Of a DNA stretch of 5,697 nucleotides, positions 1-5,697 are shown one piece after another (position 1 is the first letter of the stretch; every line of letters starts with the position of its first letter). The translations under genes were made by a program, and so were the position numbers. The notes under the pieces are model-generated. The model was not told the origin of the DNA and ran no database searches. It saw nothing but the letters and a program-made list of their open reading frames with translations. Source of the stretch: a virus (lineage: Duplodnaviria; Heunggongvirae; Uroviricota; Caudoviricetes). The stretch lies in IMG/VR virus record IMGVR_UViG_3300026224_000013, positions 1 to 5,697 of that record. One strand, written 5' to 3'.

Positions 1-171
1 TCTGAGACAACATCTGGCAAGGCTGGGACGGAAGTCACTGTCGTTCTCAAAATCGGTGGAGCTGCATGACAAAGTCATCGGGCATTATCTGAACATAAAA
101 CACTATCAATAAGTTGGAGTCATTACCCTGTTATTGATGATGATATTGACAATAAGATTTATGCCTATGCT

Positions 172-897
172 ATGAATAACGCGATATCGTTTTCAAAAGT
201 TATTAATAACGATATAAAGAATGATAAGCCAGTTGTACTTACCTCTCTTGCTGAGGTTCAGAATGATTTGTGGGCCTATTGTATTAAAGTCCAAAAGGGG
301 GCTGACGTCACTTATTCTTTCCGAAAAATCAGCAGGGGGAAAGTCACAACAAATGAACCACAAAATATGACTCAGCGCGTATTCGCTTTGTTTGATAAAA
401 CAGATAAAGAGTTAAGATCATTTGATGGCAGCGCAGTCAATTTTGATGACAAAATCGATTGTATTTATATAAAAGATCAATTTTATGTATTTCATAAGAA
501 AAGTTTTGAGGCTATTGTAGGCTTGGAGGTTGAGTTTACAGAAGCTGCACAAAAAACATTAAATACAATTAAAGAACTTGATCTTATTGAAGGTTTAGAT
601 GTTATTGAACAAGCTATTCTTCATAAGCCATCACTGAGAAAAATTCTCACTCATATCGCTGAGAAAGGTAACCATACGGCTCTGGAAAAGAATGATGTTC
701 AAGCTATGAATGATGTGTTAAAAATGTTTCAGAACGAAGAGTTTAAGACCAATGAGCATGGTAAATTAGTCATAGAAGATGAGAGGCAAGGAAGAAACTT
801 TCTCAAACTGTTAAATGATTATTATAAACAAGGCATGACTACAAAAAAATACTATGGTACGGATAGCGGAAATGTGATTAACCCTATTAAGGCGTAA
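172..897 (+). CDS. Hypothetical protein, 241 aa, AT-rich orphan ORF (candidate moron/accessory gene; function unknown)
   Basis: Uninterrupted ATG-initiated ORF of 726 nt. Composition is strikingly AT-rich (about 28-30% GC by eye) against roughly 50% GC in the phage genes downstream. Product is Lys/Asn/Asp/Glu-rich with no transmembrane segment and no catalytic motif I can recognise (no Walker A, no HxH/HExxH). No obvious Shine-Dalgarno sequence. Confidence 0.65.
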   Translation: MNNAISFSKVINNDIKNDKPVVLTSLAEVQNDLWAYCIKVQKGADVTYSFRKISRGKVTTNEPQNMTQRVFALFDKTDKELRSFDGSAVNFDDKIDCIYIKDQFYVFHKKSFEAIVGLEVEFTEAAQKTLNTIKELDLIEGLDVIEQAILHKPSLRKILTHIAEKGNHTALEKNDVQAMNDVLKMFQNEEFKTNEHGKLVIEDERQGRNFLKLLNDYYKQGMTTKKYYGTDSGNVINPIKA

Positions 898-1096
898 AGC
901 ATATACTATATCTGGAACTGAAATACCAGCCGCCATCAGAAAGAACTGATGGGGCTTACAAATAGTAAGTAAATATAAAATGTTAAGGTATTTTTCATGC
1001 AAAAATGAAAATCATTGGCACAAATTAGAAACTAAGTAAATTGCTAATACTAATAACTTATTATTCTACTTACTATTTGCATGGAGTTGTTGTGAA

Positions 1097-1130
1097 TTGC
1101 TGGAAAGGTGGGTAATGTTTTTGTAGAATC
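1097..1130 (+). promoter_or_regulatory. Candidate promoter of the hok/mok mRNA
   Basis: TGTAGAAT (TG plus TAGAAT -10 at 1124-1129) with a weak -35 (TGGAAA, 1101-1106). The predicted start region just downstream, GGCGGGTGCTTGAGGCTATCTGCCTC, resembles the 5' leader of plasmid R1 hok mRNA as I recall it. Confidence 0.4.
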
Positions 1131-1182
1131 ACGGCGGGTGCTTGAGGCTATCTGCCTCGGGCACGAACACCAAAGGCAGATA

Positions 1183-1256
1183 GAGAAAAGCCCCAGTTAA
1201 CATTACGCGTCCGGCAAGACGCTTAACATTAATCTGAGGCCAATTTCATGCTTTGC
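1183..1256 (-). ncRNA. sok: Candidate Sok-type antisense RNA (antitoxin of the hok module)
   Basis: Minus-strand promoter-like elements: -35 TTGCCT (complement of 1286-1291), 17-nt spacer, -10 TAACCT (complement of 1263-1268), placed antisense over the mok start and leader as in hok/sok of R1. The minus-strand transcript can form a stem (GGCCUCAG/CUGGGGC with one G-U) ending in a U-rich tract (cttttctct). Exact ends are approximate. Confidence 0.45.
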
Positions 1257-1460
1257 ACATGTAGGTTAGCCTCTTACGTGCCGAAAGGCAAGGAGAAGCA
1301 GGCTATGAAGCAGCAAAAGGCGATGTTAATCGCCCTGATCGTCATCTGTTTAACCGTCATTGTGACGGCACTGGTAACGAGGAAAGACCTCTGCGAGGTA
1401 CGAATCCGAACCGGGCAGACGGAGGTCGCTGTCTTCGTAGACTACGAATCTAGAGAGTAA
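1248..1460 (+). CDS. mok: Mok-like in-frame leader/regulatory ORF overlapping hok (70 aa)
   Basis: ATG at 1248 is in frame with hok and adds 19 N-terminal residues (MLCTCRLASYVPKGKEKQA). This resembles the in-frame MokC extension of chromosomal HokC as I recall it. Translation of this frame is inferred by analogy only. Confidence 0.45.
   Translation: MLCTCRLASYVPKGKEKQAMKQQKAMLIALIVICLTVIVTALVTRKDLCEVRIRTGQTEVAVFVDYESRE
1305..1460 (+). CDS. hok: Hok/Gef-family type I toxin (51 aa small membrane toxin)
   Basis: Translation MKQQKAMLIALIVICLTVIVTALVTRKDLCEVRIRTGQTEVAVFVDYESRE carries the hallmark Hok/Gef/RelF pattern: N-terminal TM helix, TRKxLCE motif, periplasmic tail ending YES. AGGAG-like RBS (aaggagaag) lies 8-16 nt upstream of the ATG. 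Confidence 0.88.
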   Translation: MKQQKAMLIALIVICLTVIVTALVTRKDLCEVRIRTGQTEVAVFVDYESRE

Positions 1461-1469
1461 GAGTGACCA

Positions 1470-1491
1470 GGCGGGAGAGTAATCTCCCGCC
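1470..1491 (+). promoter_or_regulatory. Perfect 9-bp stem-loop in the hok mRNA 3' UTR (candidate fold-back/processing element)
   Basis: GGCGGGAGA-gtaa-TCTCCCGCC is a perfect 9-bp stem with a GNRA-type tetraloop (GUAA), immediately after the hok stop. Hok mRNAs are known to carry 3' structural elements (fbi) that pair with the 5' end. Confidence 0.5.
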
Positions 1492-1530
1492 ACCTCTGAT
1501 GTGTCAGGCATCCTCAATGCACCCACACTT

Positions 1531-1562
1531 AACCCGCTTCGGCGGGTTTTTGTTTTTATTTT
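1531..1562 (+). terminator. Rho-independent terminator of the hok transcript
   Basis: AACCCGC-ttcg-GCGGGTT (7-bp stem, UUCG tetraloop) followed by TTTTGTTTTTATTTT. Confidence 0.75.
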
Positions 1563-1570
1563 CAACGCGT

Positions 1571-1600
1571 TTGAAGTTTTGGATAGTGCCGGAATAGAAT
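1571..1600 (+). promoter_or_regulatory. Candidate sigma70 promoter upstream of the small ORF/DUF1367/YbcO/Q-like gene block
   Basis: -35 TTGAAG (1571-1576), 18-nt spacer, -10 TAGAAT (1595-1600). Sequence-only prediction. Confidence 0.3.
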
Positions 1601-1682
1601 CAAAAATACTTAAGTAGCGCGCAGGGAGAAGAGGGATGGACCCCGAACAGGGGAGTGCTATTTATCTGGAAGGATTCTGAAG

Positions 1683-1856
1683 ATGAAAATCGAAGAATTG
1701 CGTGAAATTTTTAGTGAAGATGGCCTCTATGCTGTGCGCGTTGAGAATGGAGAAGTTATCTACACAACGTTAATTCCTGATGATCATGTGATTTTATCTA
1801 TCGAGGCATTCATTGAATACCTTGAAAGGCTCGGTTTCAAGGTGGTTCGCGAATGA
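1683..1856 (+). CDS. Small hypothetical protein (57 aa), acidic, not in the supplied ORF track
   Basis: ATG at 1683 with GGAAGGA upstream and stop at 1854-1856. Translation is MKIEELREIFSEDGLYAVRVENGEVIYTTLIPDDHVILSIEAFIEYLERLGFKVVRE. GC content and codon use match the downstream phage genes. No family assigned. Confidence 0.45.
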   Translation: MKIEELREIFSEDGLYAVRVENGEVIYTTLIPDDHVILSIEAFIEYLERLGFKVVRE

Positions 1857-1915
1857 GTTATAATTCGTAAGCCAGCCTGAACAACTGGCAACCTACAGCG
1901 CCATTGGAGACAGCA

Positions 1916-2515
1916 ATGGCGCATATACAACTGGTCAAACAAACCTCTTCCGGATTACTTCTCCCGGCGACGCCGGAGAGTTGTGATTTTCTGCATCAAA
2001 TCAAAATAGGCGAGTGGATACACGCTGATTTTAAGCGCGTTCGTAACTACGCATTCCATAAGCGTTTTTTCAAACTTCTGCAACTCGGATTCGATTACTG
2101 GACTCCGGTCGGTGGGGCGATCACACCTCGCGAACGAGAACTGCTGTCTGGTTTCGTGGATTACCTGTGCGAATCAGTTGGTCGGGAACACACACCAGCC
2201 CTGAGTGATGCCGCAGAGCAATATCTAAATACAGTTGCGATACGCAGAACCCGGGATACGGCATTGCTAAAGTCGTTTGAGGCTTTCCGCGAGTGGGTAA
2301 CCATTCAGGCCGGATTTTACACCGAGCATCTTTATCCTGATGGTAGCCGTGGGCGTCGGGCGAAATCTATCGCGTTTGCGAATATGGACGAAACCGTGTT
2401 TCAGCAGGTTTATAAATCTGTACTGAATGTGCTGTGGAACTGGATTCTGTTCCGTAAATTTTCCTCTCCGGAACAAGTCGAAAATGTGGCCGCGCAGCTG
2501 CTGGAGTTTGCGTAA
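1916..2515 (+). CDS. Lambdoid nin-region protein, DUF1367-like (199 aa from ATG 1916; the track ORF begins at TTG 1904)
   Basis: Long ORF with GGAGA RBS 5 nt upstream of ATG 1916. Its stop TAA (2513-2515) overlaps the ATG of the next gene. Family assignment is from memory of prophage genes that precede YbcO-like and Q genes, so it is tentative; the coding call itself is firmer. Confidence 0.7.
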   Translation: MAHIQLVKQTSSGLLLPATPESCDFLHQIKIGEWIHADFKRVRNYAFHKRFFKLLQLGFDYWTPVGGAITPRERELLSGFVDYLCESVGREHTPALSDAAEQYLNTVAIRRTRDTALLKSFEAFREWVTIQAGFYTEHLYPDGSRGRRAKSIAFANMDETVFQQVYKSVLNVLWNWILFRKFSSPEQVENVAAQLLEFA

Positions 2516-2805
2516 TGGTGGACTTACGTAAAGCGACGCGGGGGCAGATGTGCACCGTCAGAATTCCTGGCTACTGCAATCACGATCCGGAAACGTCTGT
2601 GCTGGCGCATTACCGACTGGCGGGAACGTGCGGAACAGCGATAAAGCCACACGATATGCAGGCAGCGATTGCCTGTAGCTCGTGCCACGATTTAATCGAC
2701 GGGCGGGTAAAAACCAGCGATTACACCAAAGAAGAATTACGCCTGATGCATGCAGAAGGTGTTTTTCGCACACAAGAAATCTGGAGAAAGGAGGGATATT
2801 TATGA
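2515..2805 (+). CDS. YbcO-like (DUF1364) Cys-rich putative nuclease of lambdoid prophages (96 aa)
   Basis: Translation MVDLRKATRGQMCTVRIPGYCNHDPETSVLAHYRL...IACSSCHDLIDGR has the size and conserved Cys/His spacing I associate with E. coli DLP12 YbcO. Start overlaps the upstream stop (TAATG) and the stop overlaps the downstream start (ATGA). Confidence 0.75.
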   Translation: MVDLRKATRGQMCTVRIPGYCNHDPETSVLAHYRLAGTCGTAIKPHDMQAAIACSSCHDLIDGRVKTSDYTKEELRLMHAEGVFRTQEIWRKEGYL

Positions 2806-3338
2806 TTTACCCAACGAATACAGGAAAAAGCGGAGAACACCTTCGTCTCACCACGCTGGAAAGTGTCTGGATTCAGGGAAAACTACGTATGTGGGGGCGC
2901 TGGTCGTATATTGGCGGCGGCAGGTCAGGGAATATGTTTAACCAGTTGCTGGCATCCCAAAAAATGACAAAAACAGCCATCAATGAAGCCCTGCGCAGAT
3001 TGAAAAAAGCGGGAATTGATAAACCAGAGTTGGAAGCATTTTTGCGTGAGATGATCGAAGGAAAGCAAAAAAGCTGGTTAACTCACTGCACTGATGCAGA
3101 GGCACTAAAAATTGATAGTGTTATAGGTGAAGTTCTGGCGGATCATCCAGGACTACTAAATGTCCTGAGTCAGCGTTATGTGGGGCGAGGGATGAGTAAG
3201 AGAAGGATGGCAGAGTTATTAAACGAACAGTACCCAGAGTGGGCGTTGATTACATGCCGACGTCGTGTTGAGCAGTGGTTGCGTGTTGCTGAGTTCATTT
3301 TGTATTCACCTATGAGAGAAGCGTTCGATTATGCTTAA
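2802..3338 (+). CDS. Putative late-gene antiterminator, Q-like (178 aa from ATG 2802)
   Basis: ATG 2802 has a strong AGGAGGG RBS and overlaps the YbcO-like stop. The gene is the last before a promoter/terminator pair, the tRNAs and the lysis genes, which is where Q sits in lambdoid phages. Family identity is inferred mainly from position and size, not a recognised motif. The longer track ORF from 2682 is rejected as a 5' extension. Confidence 0.55.
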   Translation: MIYPTNTGKSGEHLRLTTLESVWIQGKLRMWGRWSYIGGGRSGNMFNQLLASQKMTKTAINEALRRLKKAGIDKPELEAFLREMIEGKQKSWLTHCTDAEALKIDSVIGEVLADHPGLLNVLSQRYVGRGMSKRRMAELLNEQYPEWALITCRRRVEQWLRVAEFILYSPMREAFDYA

Positions 3339-3345
3339 AAAATCA

Positions 3346-3374
3346 TTGCAAAATGAGCCACAAACTGCTTCAAT
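3346..3374 (+). promoter_or_regulatory. Candidate late promoter (pR'-like) immediately downstream of the Q-like gene
   Basis: -35 TTGCAA (3346-3351), 17-nt spacer, -10 TTCAAT (3369-3374), about 60 nt upstream of a strong intrinsic terminator. This matches the pR'-to-tR' short-transcript layout of lambdoid phages. Weak consensus match. Confidence 0.25.
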
Positions 3375-3434
3375 TTTGGTACGCTTCGCAAAGCTGTATC
3401 GCGAGGCGAATCAAGCGCAATTGAACTTTAATAG

Positions 3435-3462
3435 AACCCGCCATCGAGCGGGTTTTGTTGTT
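3435..3462 (+). terminator. Rho-independent terminator (candidate tR')
   Basis: AACCCGC-catcga-GCGGGTT (7-bp stem) followed by TTGTTGTTTCTG U-rich tract. Confidence 0.55.
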
Positions 3463-3595
3463 TCTGCGGTGTTATATAAGAAACGACATTTAATAATCTC
3501 CTTCAAAATAAATTTGTTTATATATTGTCATGTATATTTTAAGTGAAAGTGAAATATTCACATAAAATAAAAACATATAAATAAATTTACATAAC

Positions 3596-3624
3596 TTGAC
3601 GCAAAGTGTTGTTGCGATTGGAAT
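3596..3624 (+). promoter_or_regulatory. Candidate promoter with AT-rich UP-like region upstream of the tRNA genes (alternative pR' candidate)
   Basis: -35 TTGACG (3596-3601), 17-nt spacer, -10 TGGAAT (3619-3624), preceded by about 130 bp of extremely AT-rich DNA (3470-3595) and about 75 nt upstream of the first tRNA. Confidence 0.3.
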
Positions 3625-3702
3625 ATTAAATCGTATCATCGAAAACGGTTCTGAGGGGGAACTCTTCTTTGCTCGGTGATATCGCTCCCCTGAAGAACCA
3701 AT

Positions 3703-3778
<76 letters not shown>

Positions 3779-3781
3779 TAT

Positions 3782-3856
<75 letters not shown>

Positions 3857-4156
3857 GAGAAACAAGCCTTATTGTATTGCGGCACTGGCGTATTTTTTAT
3901 TACGTGGGAGCAGGTTGTATTGAAAAAGCATTCTGTTCTCTGGCTATGATTTGAGGCCGGGTGTAGCCTCAGTGCTGATTTTTTACGGCAGCAGAATGGT
4001 GCATTATCGGTGGAGATTTTGTATTTCCTGGCAGGGTCGGTGATGCATCATTCTGGTGTTGTAAAAGCACCACAGAGGCGTTCCTCAGTGCGAGGGTGGT
4101 TTAAAGAGTCGGTTTAGCGGGAAACCACAGTATCCATACAGAACGGAATACTTCGG

Positions 4157-4182
4157 GAGGCACCCGACGCCTCGATTTTATT
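4157..4182 (+). terminator. Terminator-like hairpin with U-tract inside the non-coding block
   Basis: GAGGC-acccgac-GCCTC (5-bp stem) followed by GATTTTATT. Confidence 0.4.
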
Positions 4183-4212
4183 ACAATTAAAAATTCATCC
4201 CTTGCATTGACC

Positions 4213-4241
4213 AACCGCCTCCACCAGGCGGTTTTTTTTAT
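4213..4241 (+). terminator. Strong rho-independent terminator inside the non-coding block
   Basis: AACCGCCT-ccacc-AGGCGGTT (8-bp GC-rich stem) followed by TTTTTTATT. Confidence 0.7.
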
Positions 4242-4421
4242 TCTGAATTCAGTTTCTTCATGGCTCGCTACGGCGGGCCTTTTTCATATCCGCGCCACGC
4301 CCGGCGCACATCAAAAACCACAGAGCCTTTCAGGGGTGAGCTTACGGGATGGTCAGTGTGACTTTCTCTGTGGGCTGGTCACCCCCGGGCGGAGGCTCAC
4401 CCACTAAAAGGAAAAGTCACG

Positions 4422-4847
4422 ATGTTTGGTATTTTCAAAAAGAAAACCCGCAAGGCCATTACCGAAGTGAAGAAGATGGAGAACCGCGACGCAGTGGAGG
4501 CGACCGTCTGGGGTGCGTATTCCATTGCATACGCTGACGGCACCTGCGACGCGAAAGAAATCGCAGTACTGGAGAAAACCATTGCAGCACTTCCTGCCTT
4601 TGCACCGTTCTCCGGCGAGATTGCACAAATGAGTGCAAATATCCGCGCCCGTTATGAAGCGTCGCCGCGCTCTGCTAATGCTGAAGCCCTTCGCCAGCTG
4701 GCTGATGTTGCCGGTACTGATGACGCAGTTAATGTGCTGTGCCTGTGTCTGGATATCGCTGACCAGGATGGCATTGGTCCGGATGAAGAAGCACAGCTCA
4801 AGAAAATTGCTCAGGCGCTTCAGCTACCGCTGGAGCAGTACCTGTGA
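4422..4847 (+). CDS. TerB-like (tellurite-resistance TerB domain-like) protein, 141 aa
   Basis: ATG 4422 with AAAGGAAAAG upstream. Soluble, acidic, mostly helical-looking sequence with paired Asp-rich segments (AYADGTCDAKEIAVLEKTIAA... and ...LCLCLDIADQDGIGPDEEAQLKKIAQAL) as in TerB-fold proteins. The family call is from pattern memory, not a search. Confidence 0.65.
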   Translation: MFGIFKKKTRKAITEVKKMENRDAVEATVWGAYSIAYADGTCDAKEIAVLEKTIAALPAFAPFSGEIAQMSANIRARYEASPRSANAEALRQLADVAGTDDAVNVLCLCLDIADQDGIGPDEEAQLKKIAQALQLPLEQYL

Positions 4848-4996
4848 AAAGTGCGCGTCTTGTACTGGCTGCCATCCTGCTGTTTCTGGTAGTGGCGGTG
4901 GATTTCACCGGACGCCTGATGTCAGTGCTTGCCGATGGCGTGCTGGTGGCGATGGCGCTGGTCGTGCTCCGGCCTTTACTGCGTAAATCTGAATAA
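4844..4996 (+). CDS. Putative small membrane protein (50 aa, GTG start overlapping the upstream stop), not in the ORF track
   Basis: GTG 4844-4846 overlaps the TGA 4845-4847 of the TerB-like gene (GTGA). Translation VKSARLVLAAILLFLVVAVDFTGRLMSVLADGVLVAMALVVLRPLLRKSE has two hydrophobic stretches and a basic C-terminus. An internal ATG (about 4907-4909, same frame) would give only 29 aa. Confidence 0.35.
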   Translation: MKSARLVLAAILLFLVVAVDFTGRLMSVLADGVLVAMALVVLRPLLRKSE

Positions 4997-5043
4997 CACC
5001 ACACAAAAGGCATCTGCGGGTGCCTTTGATGGGGTGTTTTTAT

Positions 5044-5069
5044 GGGCCGTTGGTGGCCCTTTTTTATTT
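5044..5069 (+). terminator. Hairpin with U-tract upstream of the holin gene (terminator-like or regulatory)
   Basis: GGGCC-gttggt-GGCCC followed by TTTTTTTATTT. A weaker hairpin AAAGGCA-tctgcggg-TGCCTTT (5006-5027) lies just before it. Confidence 0.4.
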
Positions 5070-5083
5070 ACAGGAGAAAAAGT

Positions 5084-5449
5084 ATGTCTGAACCCTTATC
5101 CGGTTCCGGCACGGCTGCGGCGCTCGGCGGGGCGACGGTATTCGGGCTGTTTACCGGAACGGATTTCGGGATTGTGTTTGGTGCGTTCGCCGGGGCGTTG
5201 TTTGTGGCAACGATGCCGCAGAAGATTTCAGCCTGGCGTGTGGCGGCACATTTTCTGGTGTCGTTCATTGTTGGTGTACTGGGGGCGCGTGTACTGTCAG
5301 CCTGGATTGCATCAAAAACAGGTTATGACGGTACATCTGCGGAGGCACTGTGTGCGGTGCTGGTGGCGGTGGGGCTTAATCTGCTGTTCTGCGTGCTGGT
5401 GATACGTGCACGCGGGAACGTTTCAAAAATCCTTTCATTCCGGAGGTGA
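5084..5449 (+). CDS. Putative holin (121 aa, multi-TM, Gly/Ala-rich)
   Basis: ATG 5084 with AGGAG RBS (5072-5076). Three to four hydrophobic segments and a charged C-terminus (RARGNVSKILSFRR). Stop TGA 5447-5449 lies 2 nt before the endolysin ATG. The track ORF start at 5042 sits inside the upstream hairpin and is rejected. Confidence 0.6.
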   Translation: MSEPLSGSGTAAALGGATVFGLFTGTDFGIVFGAFAGALFVATMPQKISAWRVAAHFLVSFIVGVLGARVLSAWIASKTGYDGTSAEALCAVLVAVGLNLLFCVLVIRARGNVSKILSFRR

Positions 5450-5451
5450 GC

Positions 5452-5697
5452 ATGTCGGGTAAATTCAGATTCAGTCGTCGCAGTGAAAAAAATCTGGAGG
5501 GCGTCAAACCACAGCTGGTTGCTGTCGTTCGCCGTGCCCTTGAGCTGACGGAGGTTGATTTCGGTATTACGGAAGGGCTGCGCACGAAAGAACGCCAGAA
5601 ACAGCTGGTCGCGGAAGGGAAAAGCCAGACCATGAACAGCCGCCACCTGACCGGTGATGCTGTGGATGTTGTGGCTTATGTTGGCAGCCAGGTGTCA
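5452..5697 (+). CDS. Endolysin, peptidase M15 family (L-alanyl-D-glutamate peptidase / VanY-like), 5' partial (82 codons, runs off the window)
   Basis: Translation MSGKFRFSRRSEKNLEGVKPQLVAVVRRALELTEVDFGITEGLRTKERQKQLVAEGKSQTMNSRHLTGDAVDVVAYV... contains the SxHxxGxAxD zinc-binding signature (SRHLTGDAVD) typical of M15 peptidases. GGAGG RBS upstream. Confidence 0.8.
   Translation, partial: MSGKFRFSRRSEKNLEGVKPQLVAVVRRALELTEVDFGITEGLRTKERQKQLVAEGKSQTMNSRHLTGDAVDVVAYVGSQVS

Follow-up and report, generated by a model that had tools for sequence, protein, structure and literature searches.

The question raised by this locus is whether a short open reading frame (ORF) lying directly in front of an endolysin gene encodes a native holin whose expression is timed by the hairpins upstream of it. 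The stretch of DNA analysed here in full, hereafter referred to as the window, comprises 5,697 nucleotides (IMG/VR record IMGVR_UViG_3300026224_000013, positions 1 to 5,697) and represents a late-region segment of a lambdoid Escherichia coli prophage of the phiP27 type. A first-pass annotation of the window had read the ORF as a native holin gene with multiple transmembrane (TM) segments; judged by the alignments set out below, its 121-residue product is almost certainly a deletion chimera of two overlapping holin genes. The cassette itself is already known, its genes being annotated by RefSeq across many E. coli genomes. The new element is modest yet concrete: a microhomology-mediated, in-frame fusion with precisely defined breakpoints, which joins two neighbouring holin genes and circulates in nature.

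As encoded, the ORF has several hallmarks of the holin class. Gly and Ala together make up 28% of its residues, and Kyte-Doolittle hydropathy delineates strong hydrophobic segments at residues ~27-45, ~51-76 and ~83-110 along with a weaker, Gly/Ala-rich segment at residues ~7-24, in agreement with the three to four segments and the Gly/Ala-rich composition noted in the first-pass annotation. The protein is short, ends in the charged tail RARGNVSKILSFRR, and is encoded next to the endolysin gene. Helices were predicted by AlphaFold at residues 7-24, 28-43, 50-79 and 84-120, in a low-confidence model (mean predicted local distance difference test score 62; predicted template modelling score 0.38) that was too weak for a fold search and was used for helix boundaries only. 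The assignment to a lysis cassette is likewise borne out by hidden Markov model searches, in which the protein matched Phage_holin_8 (PF16931; 69.9 bits, cut-off 26.4) and phrog_198 ‘holin’ (1.6e-32), while the following gene matched phrog_465. The Phage_holin_8 match, however, extends over residues 1-98 and reaches only positions 1-96 of the 121-position profile, the conserved C-terminal ...SFIHQQDI..SGL.. segment of the full-length architecture having been lost. A second family, Phage_holin_3_7 (PF05449)/phrog_217, aligns with residues 91-117 (profile positions 53-79 of 80) at 20.4 bits, which is below its cut-off of 25.4.

The nearest phage records to the window are those of phiP27 and pPE4, and the nearest complete genome is that of E. 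coli STEC313; in each of the three, the annotation lists a pair of holin genes and, after them, a gene for a 125-residue M15 endolysin. The first of the parent genes (holin 1) encodes a Phage_holin_8 protein of 130 residues, and the second (holin 2) a three-helix Phage_holin_3_7 protein of 91 residues. Alignments against these three cassettes indicate that a block of 292 bp is absent from the window. In STEC313 (L005), a 9-nt direct repeat, TGGCGGTGG, is located at offsets 280 (in holin 1) and 572 (in holin 2) from the holin 1 start, and an exact 292-bp gap with one repeat copy left behind is, as read from these sequences, the signature of a microhomology or slippage deletion. The resulting fusion is in frame because holin 2 lies in the +1 frame, the repeat occupies the same codon phase in both genes, and 292 = 97 x 3 + 1. 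The product consists of holin 1 residues 1-93, a shared (V/L)-A-V and holin 2 residues 67-91, and over the holin 2-derived part the match to the STEC313 holin 2 3' end is perfect (100%). The junction falls in mid-helix in both parents, the two helices having the same inferred orientation, and hydrophobic character runs the full length of the hybrid segment ALCAVLVAVGLNLLFCVLVI; the fusion also preserves the cationic holin 2 tail and the coupling to the start codon of the endolysin gene (Table 1). Both copies of TGGCGGTGG are carried by only four of 83 unfused relatives, and the substrate for the deletion is therefore itself uncommon.

The direction of the event, i.e., from two genes to a fusion, is not in doubt on these comparisons, because both parent families are old and independent. 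Each parent protein matches its own profile end to end (holin 1, Phage_holin_8 positions 1-121; holin 2, 76.4 bits over positions 2-79), and relatives of holin 2 were found in 73 phage records and those of holin 1 in 14, the latter directly adjoining a holin 2 gene in the cases checked. A fused ancestral gene from which the two-gene layout arose by insertion was considered and rejected, as the parents match their profiles fully and have distant relatives elsewhere, whereas the chimera aligns with no more than a part of each. The original proposal, a native single multi-TM holin (non-lambda family) whose expression the hairpins would attenuate or time, can draw on an N-terminal match of 98 residues above the curated cut-off; it is nonetheless barely credible given that this match stops short of the end of the profile, that the last 25 residues reproduce exactly the end of another gene's product, and that every close relative has two genes, with the gap flanked by the repeat at both ends. 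Among 5.8 billion proteins, no deep lineage of 121-residue proteins with the same C-terminus was found.

Table 1. Coordinates of the lysis cassette and associated features in the window
Feature	Coordinates	Strand	Content or basis
Q-like late antiterminator gene	2802..3338	+	phrog_753 ‘anti-termination protein Q-like’, 1.1e-76
tciAB moron cassette with hairpin 1	4390..5032	+	tciA 4422-4847, tciB 4844-4996
Hairpin 1	4995..5041	+	core 5006-5027, outer pairs 4995-5000 with 5033-5038, then U-run
Hairpin 2	5044..5065	+	G+C-rich stem of 5-6 bp, U6 at 5060-5065, directly upstream of the holin ribosome-binding site
Shine-Dalgarno AGGAG	5072..5076	+	7 nt before ATG 5084; CAGGAG invariant in 34 of 34 aligned sequences
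Chimeric holin ORF	5084..5449	+	121 codons plus stop; ORF list, translation
Holin 1-derived part	5084..5363	+	residues 1-93; one mismatch in 289 nt versus unfused holin 1 of L028, L031, L036 and L038
Deletion junction	5364..5372	+	sole remaining copy of TGGCGGTGG, residues V94-A95-V96
Holin 2-derived part	5373..5449	+	last 25 codons plus stop: half of third TM helix and cationic tail RARGNVSKILSFRR
Coupling junction	5442..5454	+	GGAGG Shine-Dalgarno, holin stop TGA 5447-5449, endolysin ATG 5452
M15C L-alanyl-D-glutamate peptidase endolysin gene	5452..5697	+	first 82 of ~125 codons; phrog_465, 3e-45

The start of the chimeric ORF is the one used by RefSeq and in pPE4, and is preceded by the conserved AGGAG. 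An alternative start at the in-frame ATG at 5042, which would give 135 residues as in the phiP27 L28 annotation, was rejected, that codon lying between the two hairpins with no Shine-Dalgarno sequence there. At the other end of the ORF, the arrangement of the holin stop and the endolysin ATG, 2 nt apart, is the same in pPE4, phiP27 and STEC313.

The fused allele proved to be very infrequent. The two-gene layout (130 plus 91 or 92 residues) is present in 79 of the 80 best IMG/VR relatives, while in the best 40 of 85 full-coverage E. coli genomes a 211-nt junction query matches in two pieces over 503 bp, and those 40 genomes are therefore unfused. A 42-nt junction probe, which cannot seed on either parent gene, returned no match in 5,426 complete E. 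coli genomes or 50,697 phage records. Furthermore, a 23-mer junction pattern was found neither in the GTDB species representatives nor in IMG/VR and on a single contig of the JGI metagenome set, and a search of 5.8 billion proteins gave full (100%) query coverage solely for the two-member cluster to which the chimera itself belongs. In all, the allele is carried by four metagenome contigs, i.e., the window, L003 (ENA ERZ27241745), L087 (ERZ27241748) and L004 (JGI 3300003337), which derive from at least two studies and represent two haplotypes. The second haplotype, that of L087, differs at four nucleotides of the holin ORF, three of the changes being synonymous and one non-synonymous (F20Y); all four variant bases are already polymorphic in unfused alleles, a pattern suggesting either that prophages have recombined or that the deletion arose independently.

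That all carriers are short metagenome contigs, which break or hold ambiguous bases (Ns) in a polymorphic part of the endolysin gene, a sign of mixed prophage populations, could be taken to mean that the junction arose during the sequencing or assembly of a metagenome containing several related prophages. Such an artefact is highly improbable, since the 9-nt repeat is far below the assembly k-mer (the ENA contigs are named k141), since the same junction recurs in one JGI assembly and two ENA samples and in two haplotypes, and since the L004 holin ORF is free of Ns and mismatches. The fused allele is real. Other damaged alleles of the locus were seen in P0025, P0083 and P0087: in two of these a frameshift lets holin 1 read on into the frame of holin 2, and in the third, holin 1 residues 1-95 are joined to unrelated sequence.

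With regard to the consequence for lysis, we lean towards a cassette that is lysis-impaired or mistimed and that would represent one of several decay alleles of the locus, because the deletion destroys holin 2 and strips the conserved final 34 residues from holin 1. In an alignment of 34 sequences, the columns removed from holin 1 are nearly invariant. Holin 2 is the member of the pair that many phages conserve, and it follows the class-I pattern: three hydrophobic segments, a first loop that is strongly basic, and a tail that is basic as well. Only its last 25 residues are left here. In porcine Shiga toxin-producing E. coli (STEC), replacement of holin 1 abolished enrofloxacin-induced release of Stx2e; judging by the primer sequences, the replaced stretch also took in the start of holin 2 (PMC12571312).

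Several observations weigh against impairment. Plasmid-borne holin 1 alone restored Stx2e release in the same study (PMC12571312); this makes holin 1 a possible hole-former, and the chimera keeps 96 of its 130 residues. The topology predicted for the chimera is compatible with both parents, and the protein may still insert in the membrane with a native-like topology. In addition, the chimeric ORF is intact on four of four contigs, and, apart from a KwaB fragment near the start of the window, the other genes read in the window appear intact. It is accordingly conceivable, if less probable, that the chimera is a working holin, i.e., a one-gene version of the two-gene system with possibly altered timing, in which a hole-forming holin 1 core of four helices, the last of them hybrid, would carry the cationic cytoplasmic tail of holin 2 and suffice to release the soluble endolysin. 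This is consistent with the complementation of toxin release by holin 1 alone (PMC12571312), with the in-frame joining of two helices of the same predicted orientation, with the continuous helix predicted across the junction (residues 84-120, at low confidence), with the intact state of the ORF on four contigs in two haplotypes that differ by three synonymous changes and one non-synonymous change, and with the unchanged ribosome-binding site, terminator context and endolysin coupling. Set against these points are the extreme rarity of the allele, the retention of both parent genes in 79 of 80 relatives and the near-invariance of the deleted holin 1 C-terminus. Moreover, the in-frame outcome follows automatically from the codon phase of the repeat and so is not evidence of selection, while the four variant bases pre-exist in unfused alleles and may reflect recombination rather than long persistence.

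A more specific version of a functional fusion, which we regard as tentative and rather unlikely, would be a natural one-gene replacement in which a Phage_holin_8 core has acquired the last helix and tail of an unrelated class-I-type holin, perhaps recurrently through slippage at the 9-nt repeat. Were this the case, the locus would represent a natural domain swap, and holin membrane cores and C-terminal tails would behave as interchangeable modules. If, on the other hand, the cassette is impaired, as we favour, and the chimera is inactive, it would provide a clean example of prophage lysis genes that have been disarmed. An active chimera would offer a natural means of asking which parts of the Phage_holin_8 and Phage_holin_3_7 proteins, both poorly studied, form the hole and which set its timing. 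The locus also serves as a warning that family searches can go on assigning the label ‘holin’ to a neat ORF that a deletion has produced, and it bears on Stx2e release, as holin 1 of the phiP27-type cassette has been linked to antibiotic-induced toxin release in porcine STEC (PMC12571312).

The second part of the original proposal concerned two hairpins, placed at 5006-5027 and 5044-5069 and suggested to attenuate or time holin expression. Both are present, the second as 5044-5059 followed by six U residues, but their structure and distribution fit intrinsic terminators better than an attenuator or timer specific to the holin. By RNA folding, the core of hairpin 1 comprises 9 bp (5006-5014 with 5019-5027) closed by a UGCG loop, and is followed by a U-run only if the weaker outer pairs listed in Table 1 form; with these pairs included, its 5' end overlaps the final 2 nt of the tciB stop codon (4994-4996). 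Hairpin 2 pairs 5044-5048/49 with 5054/55-5059, as GGGCC(G)...(U)GGCCC followed by U6, which is the G+C-rich stem-loop with immediate U-run of an intrinsic terminator, and a terminator scan independently selected 5044-5059 together with TTTTTTATTT. The 96-nt stretch spanning both (4995-5090) folds at -34.4 kcal/mol (z = -2.93), with one of 200 shuffles folding as well, and nine terminator-like sites were found in 3300-5697 versus 2.7 +/- 1.9 expected.

Conservation of the two structures was assessed across the relatives. Standard pairs occupy 89% of the pair cells in 33 distinct relatives, compared to ~50% when the partners are slid; the hairpin 1 helix is paired at 89.5% in these 33 sequences, and hairpin 2 at 98% across relatives, the changes in the latter being almost all of the GC-to-GU type. 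Loop positions vary freely. Covariation was set aside as proof of either hairpin, the relatives being too similar and double compensatory changes few (five pairs), though pair-preserving changes outnumber disruptive ones. A known RNA family at or upstream of the hairpins was likewise rejected, as Rfam at gathering thresholds returned only sok and two tRNAs; a permissive Rfam scan of 3850-5100 yielded solely sub-threshold matches at chance level, among them suhB/mmgR at 18.4 bits over 5015-5074.

The distribution of the hairpins favours the terminator reading, hairpin 1 accompanying the tciAB moron and hairpin 2 the backbone that carries the holin gene. In the relative L067, the sequence corresponding to window positions 4254-4389 joins directly to that of 5033-5372, the intervening 4390-5032 being missing; tciA, tciB and hairpin 1 therefore form one inserted cassette, whereas hairpin 2 belongs to the backbone. 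Hairpin 1 is present in 60 of 83 relatives, its absence from L067 coinciding with that of tciAB, while hairpin 2 is present in 68 of 83, including relatives whose upstream genes are different and whose upstream sequence is unrelated. Hairpin 1 is thus probably a terminator that closes the tciAB moron, and hairpin 2 is best read as a backbone terminator guarding the lysis genes. That both hairpins are real and conserved would also suit a native holin with timed expression; however, hairpin 1 comes and goes with tciAB, hairpin 2 has the form of a plain terminator, and the Shine-Dalgarno sequence and start codon are free of both in the centroid structure. In a lysogen, these terminators would halt unmodified RNA polymerase, and during lytic growth polymerase modified by the Q-like protein would be expected to read through them. 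The terminator role and the Q read-through are derived from structure, position and lambdoid precedent, a dependence that counts against our overall interpretation. A long imperfect stem-loop (4323-4398, +; -42 kcal/mol, z = -1.96; no Rfam match) is located just upstream of the tciA start, and its homologue in L067 (81% identical), where tciAB is absent, directly precedes hairpin 2 and the holin gene.

The endolysin gene starts at 5452, not 5453, and the SxHxxGxAxD signature previously noted in its product is present as S63-x-H65-x-x-G68-x-A70-x-D72, which places the zinc ligands H65 and D72 within the window. These residues correspond to H66/D73 of EndoT5 and H62/D69 of EndoRB49, and the phiP27 endolysin is among the sequences of a published M15_C alignment in which the zinc ligands and catalytic Asp are defined (PMC10487532). 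The window fragment alone has no Pfam match above cut-off, while the full-length STEC313 orthologue matches Peptidase_M15_4 at 45.2 bits (cut-off 25) and, in the PDB, L-Ala-D-Glu peptidases, i.e., 23ri (1.4e-43), 8q2g (~1e-43), ChiX 5opz (2e-42) and T5 2mxz (3e-23). The M15 assignment of the first-pass annotation is upheld by these matches, together with that to phrog_465. Its caution that a signal-anchor or C-terminal domain could not be assessed, in contrast, no longer applies. The N-terminus lies within the window, and its sequence, MSGKFRFSRRSEKNLEG, is charged and hydrophilic (highest 19-residue hydropathy, 0.94), unlike the hydrophobic signal-anchor of a signal-anchor-release endolysin; beyond the window edge, ~43 further residues follow without an extra domain, as read from relatives and from the fused-allele contigs L004 and L087. 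The catalytic Asp and the third ligand, a His, lie in this remaining part, which ends in ...KDGPHFQLKR on L004 (the same fused allele, with Ns elsewhere) and in STEC313. By its sequence, the endolysin is a small, soluble, cytoplasmic M15C L-alanyl-D-glutamate zinc peptidase without a signal-anchor, and would therefore depend on large holin-made holes to reach the cell wall.

The L087 contig ends at residue 100 of the endolysin, before the DGPHF motif. On L004 the gene is called as two pieces of 68 and 65 residues, but a pseudogene was rejected, the split being due to Ns and one ambiguous extra base at a polymorphic patch; all differences between L004 and the window over 4386-5592 are Ns. A polymorphic patch at 5577-5592 (+) reads ACGAAAGAA in the window and AGTAAGTAT in L003 and pPE4, and consists of Ns on L004. 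Downstream of it, still within the endolysin gene, lie the ends of three contigs (the window, L003 and L087), which suggests that several related prophages were co-resident in the samples.

Extension of the sequence beyond the endolysin gene had been recommended as a means of finding spanin genes, and a candidate for an o-spanin was located downstream of that gene on L004 (1876-2130) and in STEC313 (L005, 7257-7779). It is a small lipoprotein gene whose product has a LLVGC or LLAGC lipobox, a mature part of ~30 residues and three Cys. On L004 the lipoprotein gene and the end of the endolysin gene overlap, an arrangement shared with L31 of phiP27, while in STEC313 it is situated ~760 bp further on, past two small membrane-protein ORFs. 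The phiP27 spanins have been described as singletons with the shortest periplasmic length (Kongari et al.).

The closest known systems are the cassettes of the Stx2e phage phiP27 (L28 holin, L29 holin, L30 endolysin; NC_003356), reportedly sequenced in 2002, and of STEC313 (NZ_CP041433), which share with the window the upstream hairpins, ribosome-binding site, M15 endolysin and gene order. Their holin 1 part is 90-99.7% identical to that of the window, and the holin 2 3' end is identical in STEC313; they differ in possessing two separate, overlapping holin genes (130/144 and 91 residues) in place of one 121-residue chimera, and phiP27 carries stx2e where the window has tciAB. The pPE4 record (L001; PP818812.1, ‘Actinobacillus phage vB_Apl-pPE4’) exhibits 93% DNA identity to the E. 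coli prophage sequence over tciA, tciB, both holin genes and the endolysin gene. Its attribution to Actinobacillus pleuropneumoniae is surprising given this identity, and the host may deserve checking.

In the late operon of phage lambda, Q antitermination is followed by the S holin, the R endolysin and Rz/Rz1. The window resembles this arrangement in its Q-like gene upstream, in the terminators before the lysis genes and in the order of holin and endolysin, and the deleted holin 2 belongs to the Phage_holin_3 group of Pfam (‘Putative 3TM holin, Phage_holin_3’). It differs in that the endolysin is a peptidase rather than a transglycosylase, holin 1 is of a different family (Phage_holin_8), no dual-start motif is evident, and Q is separated from the holin gene by tRNA genes and a moron. 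The M15C peptidases EndoT5 (2mxz), EndoRB49, 8q2g, 23ri and Serratia marcescens ChiX (5opz) are, like the window endolysin, single-domain proteins of ~125-137 residues with the first His and Asp ligands in the motif, with E-values to the full-length orthologue of 1.4e-43 to 3e-23, although the window holds only 82 of ~125 residues, the catalytic Asp and third His being seen on relatives and L004. ChiX acts with the holin-3 protein ChiW in secretion rather than lysis (PMC4259817).

Upstream of the lysis genes, the window contains, in order, the KwaB fragment, hok/sok, NinB-like, YbcO-like and Q-like genes, tRNA-Thr, tRNA-Gly, tciA and tciB. An identical Q-like gene is carried by L003, where the Pfam tags are DUF1133 and, weakly, Phage_antitermQ. 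The tciA product matches TerB and phrog_632 ‘tellurite resistance’, and that of tciB matches DUF3927 and phrog_1470 ‘TciB-like’. In phage P1, tciA/tciB constitute a tellurite/colicin-resistance moron; tciA of the window has ~80% DNA identity to its P1 counterpart, while the pair differs from that of P1 in being inserted with its own terminator-like hairpin just upstream of a lambdoid prophage holin gene.

A match to KwaB of the Kiwa defence system was obtained for the ORF at 172-897 (+; PADLOC PDLC00223, 6e-115), covering profile positions 100-338 of 339 only. An in-frame stop is found upstream at ~67-69 and no KwaA within the window, and the ORF has the appearance of a KwaB that is either truncated at its N-terminus or a shorter variant carried by the prophage. 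A toxin-antitoxin locus of the hok/sok type occupies 1136-1460 (+), with an Rfam sok match of 113 bits over 1136-1310 overlapped by a Hok/Gef-family ORF at 1248-1460 (phrog_251 ‘MokW-like host killing’). The tRNA-Thr(TGT) and tRNA-Gly(TCC) genes (3703-3856, +) lie between the Q-like gene and the lysis genes, as they do in STEC313, while phiP27 has tRNA-Ile and tRNA-Arg at this position. The end of the Q-like gene is overlapped by a 71-residue ORF (3331-3546, +) without a family match, inside which a terminator-like hairpin (3435-3462; AACCCGC-CATCGA-GCGGGTT followed by TTGTTGTT) is located. Beyond this ORF the sequence becomes AT-rich and includes a promoter-like site (3612-3639); this stretch is a candidate for the late promoter region.

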